This document shows, piece by piece, positions 36,169 to 37,303 of a DNA stretch of 41,323 nucleotides. Positions within the stretch are counted from its first letter, which is position 1. Each line of letters begins with the position of its first letter. The DNA comes from Escherichia coli (GTDB lineage Bacteria > Pseudomonadota > Gammaproteobacteria > Enterobacterales > Enterobacteriaceae). The position numbers and the translations under genes are program-made. The stretch is from assembly GCF_003334255.1 (NCBI RefSeq), contig NZ_QOWU01000052.1. One strand, given 5' to 3'. Below the pieces are notes generated by a model. It saw only the letters and a program-made list of their open reading frames with translations, was not told the DNA's origin and searched no databases.

Positions 36169-36626
36169 TTAAATCATGGTGGGCAGAAAAATCCACATCG
36201 GAAAAACAGATCGTTGCGGCACTGGCGGTTCTCTCGCTCGGCGTTTTTTGTTGGCTTGGGGTGATAAAACCGATAGATACCTACATTGCAGAGCATCAGT
36301 CCCACGCGCAAAAAATTAAGAAGGACATCAAATGGATGCAGGATCAAGCGAGCACCCATGGTTTACTCGGTCATCCTGCGCTTACGCAGCCCATCAAAAA
36401 TATCCTTCTCGAGGAAGCAAAACGTGAGAATTTGGCTATCACGCTGGAAAACGGCCCGGACAATACTCTGACAATTCATCCTGTCACAGCTCCCCTCGAA
36501 AACGTCTCCCGCTGGCTCACTACGGCACAGGTAACATACGGTATTGTTATTGAAGACCTTCAGTTTACTCTTGCCGGAAACGAAGAGATCACCCTCAGGC
36601 ATTTGTCCTTCAGGGAGCAACAATAA
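36165..36626 (+). CDS. gspM: T2SS inner-membrane protein GspM (153 aa)
   Basis: ORF 36141..36626; start taken at ATG 36165 (MIKSWWAEKSTSEKQIVAALAVLSLGVFCWLGVI...), overlapping the gspL stop; the upstream ATG at 36141 is an alternative. Confidence 0.85.
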   Translation: MIKSWWAEKSTSEKQIVAALAVLSLGVFCWLGVIKPIDTYIAEHQSHAQKIKKDIKWMQDQASTHGLLGHPALTQPIKNILLEEAKRENLAITLENGPDNTLTIHPVTAPLENVSRWLTTAQVTYGIVIEDLQFTLAGNEEITLRHLSFREQQ

Positions 36627-37303
36627 TGACAATGCTACTGCCGCTCTTCATTCTGGTTGGTTTTATTGCAGGTTATTTTGTTAATGCCATCGCCTATCAC
36701 CTCTCGCCGTTGGAGGATAAAACGGCGTTAACGTTTCGCCAGGTATTGGTTCATTTCAGGCAAAAAAAATATGCCTGGCATGATACAGTGCCCCTGATAC
36801 TTTGTGTTGCTGCTGCTATCGCCTGCGCCCTGGCACCTTTCACGCCCATCGTGACTGGCGCACTCTTTCTCTATTTCTGTTTCGTACTCACGCTCAGTGT
36901 TATTGATTTTCGCACTCAGCTCCTGCCCGACAAACTCACCTTACCGCTGCTCTGGCTTGGCTTGGTATTTAATGCGCAGTATGGATTAATTGATTTACAT
37001 GATGCGGTTTACGGCGCGGTAGCGGGCTATGGGGTGCTGTGGTGTGTTTACTGGGGCGTCTGGTTAGTTTGTCACAAAGAGGGATTGGGCTACGGTGATT
37101 TCAAGCTACTGGCCGCTGCAGGCGCATGGTGTGGCTGGCAAACGTTGCCAATGATACTGCTGATTGCCTCGCTGGGTGGCATTGGTTACGCCATCGTTTC
37201 ACAACTTCTGCAACGCCGGACTATAACCACTATCGCATTCGGCCCGTGGCTTGCGCTCGGCAGCATGATAAACCTGGGGTATCTGGCCTGGATCTCTTAT
37301 TAA
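36626..37303 (+). CDS. gspO: Prepilin peptidase GspO (225 aa), short form
   Basis: Polytopic membrane protein with the conserved aspartyl-protease region (SVIDFRTQLLPDK ... GLGYGDFKLL); no CxxC...CxxC motif in the first cytoplasmic loop. Confidence 0.93.
   Translation: MTMLLPLFILVGFIAGYFVNAIAYHLSPLEDKTALTFRQVLVHFRQKKYAWHDTVPLILCVAAAIACALAPFTPIVTGALFLYFCFVLTLSVIDFRTQLLPDKLTLPLLWLGLVFNAQYGLIDLHDAVYGAVAGYGVLWCVYWGVWLVCHKEGLGYGDFKLLAAAGAWCGWQTLPMILLIASLGGIGYAIVSQLLQRRTITTIAFGPWLALGSMINLGYLAWISY

Follow-up and report, generated by a model that had tools for sequence, protein, structure and literature searches.

A short form of the prepilin peptidase GspO in the Escherichia coli type II secretion operon lacks the zinc-binding cysteine loop and probably cleaves pseudopilins without N-methylating them

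The prepilin peptidase GspO encoded in the chromosomal gsp operon of Escherichia coli is a short form of the enzyme, which has kept the aspartyl-protease core of PilD-type peptidases together with the two helices that precede it, and has lost the cysteine-bearing cytoplasmic loop between these helices. We suggest that it is most likely monofunctional, i.e. that it cleaves the leaders of the pseudopilins GspG to GspK without N-methylating them, and put the probability of this reading, which draws on the analogy with PilD, at roughly 70%. The protein was found in a window of 41,323 nt (the whole stretch of DNA that was analysed). The finding is correct but ordinary, because the gene has long been known and is reportedly functional, and methylase-free members of the family are known as well; work on gspO goes back to the 1990s, and any domain annotation shows that the domain is missing. 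The useful remainder is the prediction that GspG is unmethylated.

The gene order in the chromosomal window is as follows: ribosomal protein operons, gspA/B, gspC-O (T2SS-alpha), and then bfr, bfd and chiA. All of the features described below lie on the plus strand. The gspO coding sequence (36626-37303, 225 aa, labelled 'prepilin peptidase GspO' in RefSeq) closes the gspC-O operon, and its ATG overlaps the stop codon of gspM (TAATG). The protein is one residue apart (G16D) from b3335 of K-12 MG1655, which is annotated as 'cryptic type II secretion system prepilin peptidase', and ETEC H10407, like many further strains, has exactly the allele of the window. The gene is well known, and the short form is its standard allele in E. 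coli, not a peculiarity of the window. At an identity of at least 95%, the 678-nt gene was found in 3159 of 5426 complete E. coli genomes and is intact in 3145; no long gspO allele was detected at blastn sensitivity, and the loss is fixed in E. coli. As the same 678-nt gene is present in 3145 complete genomes, the short form is not an assembly artefact.

The peptidase core is complete. Pfam recognizes a sole domain in GspO, Peptidase_A24 (PF01478; residues 82-190, window 36869-37195), with an E-value of 3.6e-30 and full model coverage. The initial annotation had pointed to an aspartyl-protease core on the strength of two motifs, DFRTQLLPDK and GYGDFKLL, and both were found: D94 lies in IDFRTQLLPDK (GAT at 36905-36907) and D158 in GYGDFKLL (GAT at 37097-37099). 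No variation was seen in D94, D158 or the GxGD context, whether 17 or 90 sequences were aligned. The two aspartates are spaced 64 residues apart, as are D149 and D213 in PilD. Searching the PDB with the GspO sequence returned no homologue, and in a fold search the sole meaningful match was FlaK (3s0x, probability 0.96, TM 0.46-0.54), the others being distant GxGD proteases. No NCBIfam model matched GspO, its long orthologue, PppA or the orphan peptidase described below.

The presumed substrates are encoded just upstream, and their class III (prepilin-type) signal peptides are canonical (a hyphen marks the expected cleavage site): G-[FM]TLLE in GspG, H, I and J, and G-VALL in GspK. The major pseudopilin gene gspG (32106-32543) specifies the leader MRATDKQRG-FTLLE. 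It is followed by the minor pseudopilin genes gspH (32551-33060; MNQQRG-FTLLE), gspI (33057-33434; MNKQSG-MTLLE, with the start probably at M14 of the ORF), gspJ (33427-34014; MINRQQG-FTLLE) and gspK (34007-34990; MNNEQRG-VALL, without Glu5). With PF01478, the two aspartates, the GxGD motif and class III substrates all present, GspO is, as far as its sequence can tell, a member of peptidase family A24A.

The N-terminal region, on the other hand, departs from that of the full-length enzymes. In the AF2 model of GspO (pLDDT 89.7), TM1 (residues 2-26, window 36629-36703) is followed by a loop (residues 27-50, 36704-36775), TM2 (residues 51-69, 36776-36832) and six core helices; the model has nine helices, one of which is a short helix of the loop. 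The loop thus comprises 24 residues, in agreement with the approximately 25 claimed earlier, and is poorly defined in the model (pLDDT 62-76). TM1 aligns with the first helix of the long relatives, with G12 and G16 conserved. TM1 and TM2 are the first two helices left over from what was once the N-terminal (methylase) domain.

The claim that this loop contains no CxxC...CxxC motif was borne out by both the alignments and the cysteine positions. There is no cysteine in residues 27-50 and no CxxC in the whole protein, whose cysteines (60, 67, 85, 140, 149 and 169) are all within predicted hydrophobic helices. Across comparisons with 13 to 80 full-length relatives, both CxxC pairs are absent from GspO; in alignments A1, A2 and A3 its degenerate, Cys-free loop stands opposite the zinc-ribbon loop of about 51 residues found in orthologues. 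Likewise, Pfam gave no match of GspO to PF06750 (A24_N_bact / DiS_P_DiS, IPR010627). In precomputed Pfam assignments the E. coli-type entries all carry PF01478 only, while nearly all of the full-length (>200 aa) relatives listed carry PF06750 in addition. By both of these tests, the PF06750 match and the CxxC-X21-CxxC motif, the sequence of GspO would be placed outside the bifunctional PilD-type subgroup.

Three trivial explanations for the short loop were ruled out. A missed N-terminal extension is incompatible with the overlap of the ATG and the gspM stop codon and with the alignment of the N-terminus to TM1 of the relatives. A double frameshift hiding the zinc ribbon would have left a remnant, and the other two frames of 36680-36840 contain no CxxC...CxxC. 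Nor is the gene split, as no separate zinc-finger ORF exists in the window: the loop sequences of the long orthologue and PppA were used in tblastn, and all six frames of the window were scanned for CxxC-X15-30-CxxC; apart from noise, this gave a single match, CxxC-X29-CxxC, at 30565-30675 within the gspE ORF (29422-30903). This match (CPQC...CPHC), the only one in any frame of the window, is unrelated to GspO and presumably represents the known zinc site of GspE-type ATPases.

The origin of the short form can be read from two syntenic loci, L003 (Logan ERR3904647) and L005 (Enterobacteriaceae bacterium UBA5654), in which gspK-L-M-O is followed by bfr, bfd and chiA, as in E. coli. Their GspO proteins share the locus and 65-66% identity in the core with E. 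coli GspO, but are 254 and 258 aa long, respectively, PF06750-positive, and endowed with an intact zinc ribbon (SHCCHC...GRCRYC in the 254-aa and SRCCDC...GRCRYC in the 258-aa protein), while E. coli GspO has V41 and R44 in place of the last two cysteines. In the 254-aa orthologue, AF2 (pLDDT 91.4) places a loop of about 51 residues (32-82), where each Cys pair sits in a short hairpin knuckle and a helix separates the two; the knuckles occur in the long form only.

In the DNA alignment the E. coli loop segment GTT CAT TTC AGG CAA AAA AAA TAT GCC TGG stands opposite TGC CGA TAC TGT CAT CAG AAA ATT GCC TGG of the orthologue, so that codons V41-H42-F43-R44 (36746-36757) align with the second CxxC (C-R-Y-C), both of whose cysteines have been substituted. 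The protein alignment agrees, with E. coli QKKYAW opposite HQKIAW of the orthologue, after the second Cys pair. According to both alignments, about 30 codons are absent from E. coli gspO, comprising the first CxxC and the 21-residue spacer. As the orthologues at the identical position are long and carry CxxC-X21-CxxC, the E. coli short form is therefore derived from a full-length GspO via in-frame loss and substitutions.

Among known peptidases, PilD/XcpA of Pseudomonas aeruginosa, VcpD and PppA (T2SS-beta) share with GspO the A24 core with the two aspartates and GxGD, the eight-helix layout with TM1 and TM2 before the core, and substrates of the G-F/M-T-L-L-E kind. They differ in carrying CxxC-X21-CxxC in a loop of about 50-100 residues, whereas GspO has its 24-residue Cys-free loop and no PF06750. 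Methylase-free prepilin peptidases are familiar from other groups, for instance the TadV-type and archaeal enzymes (PMC10191384, PMC4322843, PMC4471445); TadV itself is described as having no N-terminal methyltransferase domain (PMC4322843, PMC10191384). TadV, FppA and CpaA of Flp pili and the archaeal FlaK and PibD resemble GspO in being a peptidase core without a working methylase domain. However, TM1 and TM2 are absent from these enzymes, which serve Flp pili or archaella, and the Flp-type has five helices (PMC4322843). Because TM1 and TM2 are kept, GspO is not TadV-type, but is by its sequence a PilD/PulO-type enzyme minus the loop alone. Its nearest relatives are PF06750-positive GspO proteins, and its gene sits in the gsp operon, not in a tad/flp context.

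A different kind of reduction is represented by an orphan 155-aa A24 peptidase of O157:H7-type E. coli (WP_000381746.1), which occupies the same rpsJ-bfr position as gspO. It consists of the A24 core only, has no cysteine motif and is 40% identical to GspO, but TM1, the loop and TM2 are all missing and no gsp genes are found alongside. This protein presumably resembles HopD of Salmonella.

The initial annotation had also stated that the loop of PilD/PulO-type enzymes carries the tetracysteine motif. This holds for 70 of the 90 aligned relatives, in which exactly 21 residues separate the two pairs (CxxC-X21-CxxC), but not for all: 12 of the 90, among them Klebsiella PulO-like and OutO-like enzymes, have CxxC and 'CC'. 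The remaining 8 lack any motif; three of them are short forms of the E. coli type, and the other five are orphan peptidases 155-159 aa in length. In the Klebsiella PulO-like and Brenneria/Serratia OutO-like proteins of alignment A4 (P0048, P0058, P0080, P0094, P0065 and others) R-A/S-R-C-C replaces the second CxxC, so that, going by these sequences, the tetracysteine is not strictly universal even in classical T2SS peptidases. Among the best 150 representatives at 50% identity (from 1.84 billion proteins), about 31 have an N-terminal part of 40-110 residues without CxxC, many of them resembling TM1 + short loop + TM2, though some may be fragments; another 12 have a long N-terminal part without CxxC. 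Judged from these representatives, the Cys-free architecture clearly recurs among metagenomic homologues and would not be rare.

Cleavage without methylation is the most reasonable reading of GspO because in PilD the zinc bound by four cysteines is needed for SAM-dependent methylation, not for cleavage (PMC3584216). Methylation by PilD also involves a Gly and a basic residue adjoining the third cysteine (Pepe and Lory 1998, as cited in PMC3584216). All of these residues, the four cysteines and the Gly/basic pair, are deleted or substituted in GspO. In our view GspO is an eight-helix aspartyl protease of the GxGD type that serves the chromosomal T2SS-alpha as its prepilin peptidase. [quoted passage not shown] Long ago, about 30 codons were lost in frame from the stretch encoding its TM1-TM2 loop, and the Cys pair that was left has been substituted; the C4 zinc ribbon disappeared in this way, and with it the G-R/K-C segment at the third cysteine. 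The matured pseudopilins should then start with a Phe or Met that is free and unmethylated, except if PppA, which retains the motif, adds the methyl group in trans. That GspO is an active peptidase is suggested by a passage in PMC4971541, citing Francetic and Pugsley, in which gspO is described as encoding a functional enzyme, and by a statement in PMC3707838 that the K-12 GspO homologue acts in ChiA secretion through T2SS-alpha. In the full texts covered by our literature search there is no measurement of the E. coli GspG N-terminus, no statement on GspG methylation and no explicit mention of the missing cysteines of GspO, on which the primary papers of the 1990s have probably remarked.

Two points might speak against cleavage-only activity, namely that TM1 and TM2 of the N-terminal domain are kept and that the loss of methylation is extrapolated from PilD. 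GspO might still N-methylate its substrates by means of TM1, TM2 and the short loop, free of any zinc ribbon. The catalytic residues for methyl transfer in the N-terminal domain have had no formal demonstration (PMC4471445), and the two helices are under some constraint, with a pN (0.34, see below) well below saturation. PulO-like enzymes are already off the canonical motif, and PulO is reported to methylate PulG nevertheless; the methylation motif therefore tolerates some variation. However, given the dependence of PilD methylation on zinc and cysteines, the deletion or substitution of the Gly and basic residue by the third cysteine, an N-terminal domain that Pfam no longer recognizes and a loop modelled at low confidence, we regard such zinc-free methylation as very improbable.

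A division of labour, in which cleavage by GspO would be followed by methylation in trans by PppA (or the T2SS-beta GspO) to yield a methylated mature GspG, appears a little less improbable, but still quite unlikely. The PppA of K-12 (268 aa) has kept SHCPHC...GRCRDC intact, the two activities of PilD can be separated (PMC3584216), and prepilin peptidases are generally promiscuous (PMC4471445). The pppA content, however, could differ among the many strains concerned. Francetic et al. are said to have found in 1998 that pppA is poorly expressed under laboratory conditions, which counts against this option. That PppA could methylate GspO products in trans is speculation. The related suggestion of the initial annotation, that GspO may depend on another peptidase for full function, appears weak: an intact second peptidase is indeed encoded, but GspO itself is described as functional in the two sources named above.

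It might also be that GspO is a decaying relic, the loop loss being one erosion step of a silent operon in which PppA is the working peptidase. The K-12 RefSeq annotation labels the gsp genes 'cryptic', frameshifted alleles exist (e.g. the 5-bp deletion in strain R14), K-12 carries G16D at an otherwise invariant glycine, gspO is missing from 42% of complete E. coli genomes, and deletion of pppA abolishes T2SS-beta secretion despite the presence of gspO (PMC3707838). On the other hand, the ORF is full-length in the 3145 genomes mentioned above, all catalytic and near-invariant core residues are retained, and passages in PMC4971541 and PMC3707838 have GspO functional in ChiA secretion.

The comparison with a second short form bears on both sides of this question. 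This protein (P0009, locus L002) has 226 aa, is 66% identical to GspO and is encoded between gspM and bfr; its source is not E. coli, having at most 74% DNA identity to any E. coli. Synonymous sites between the two genes are saturated (pS ~0.7), which limits the comparison to pN, and the lengths differ by one codon. The first 80 codons, with a pN of 0.34 against 0.115 for the core, evolve about three times faster at non-synonymous sites, as a relic would have it. However, as the second lineage keeps the frame despite saturated synonymous sites, the short form is old and selectively maintained, with an N-terminal part that is relaxed but not free. We therefore consider the relic unlikely, if somewhat less so than the two readings discussed before it, and prefer cleavage without methylation. 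The physiological relevance of GspO is nonetheless uncertain because the operon is annotated as cryptic in K-12.

We see even chances that the pseudopilins of E. coli T2SS-alpha never become N-methylated, which would make it a natural example of such a type II secretion system. If so, GspO versus its syntenic long orthologue would constitute a clean genetic handle on the long-standing question of the purpose of pilin and pseudopilin N-methylation. A cleavage-only GspO inside a complete T2SS would moreover be a convenient natural control for the effect of methylation on assembly and on ChiA secretion. It is a possibility that TM1, the short loop and TM2 are kept for a role other than methylation, e.g. 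substrate docking or contact with the assembly platform. Some databases label GspO 'leader peptidase/N-methyltransferase' by similarity; the second half of this label is likely an over-annotation, since the sequence no longer supports the second activity.

Several minor observations concern the distribution of the gene. The rpsJ-bfr interval (window 24591-40936) exists in two versions in E. coli: gspA-O and chiA are present in about 58% of complete genomes, and the remainder, e.g. O157:H7, contain only the orphan 155-aa A24 peptidase (L009, NE1127, 3518-3985). The orphan-type strains have a bfr with only about 80% DNA identity, and their bfd is directly followed by tuf. In strain R14 (L008, 1501-2173) a 5-bp deletion of gspO nt 328-332 (window 36953-36957) cuts GspO off after about 113 residues, and RefSeq marks the gene as frameshifted/pseudogene. 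A 673-nt span of gspO was found in 4 of the 29 full-length rows of a spread sample, so gspO is a pseudogene in a sizeable minority of E. coli. Many truncated GspO clusters are present in the protein database. A scan of GTDB genomes for gspO returned three loci, with no E. coli genome among them. The gspO gene of one 'Citrobacter sp.' MAG (HRGM_Genome_0066, contig DXKH01000010.1, L004) is 98% identical to the E. coli gene, which suggests a mis-binned or mis-classified E. coli contig.

Two observations concern single sites of the gene. The degenerate loop-coding stretch contains a run of eight A (CAA AAA AAA TAT) at window positions 36762-36769, and in one database variant (P0004) a scrambled sequence begins exactly at this run; the tract may be prone to slippage or sequencing error. 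Residue 16 lies within TM1 and is Gly in the window and in all 17 sequences of alignment A1 (GspO and 16 relatives), while the corresponding codon of K-12 MG1655 specifies Asp (window 36671-36673; L011, 1089-1091). The K-12 derivatives Origami2, BM28 and HB101 likewise match the query gspO at 99.9%. These data are consistent with a laboratory-lineage change, the residue having been read in MG1655 and one MG1655 derivative only.
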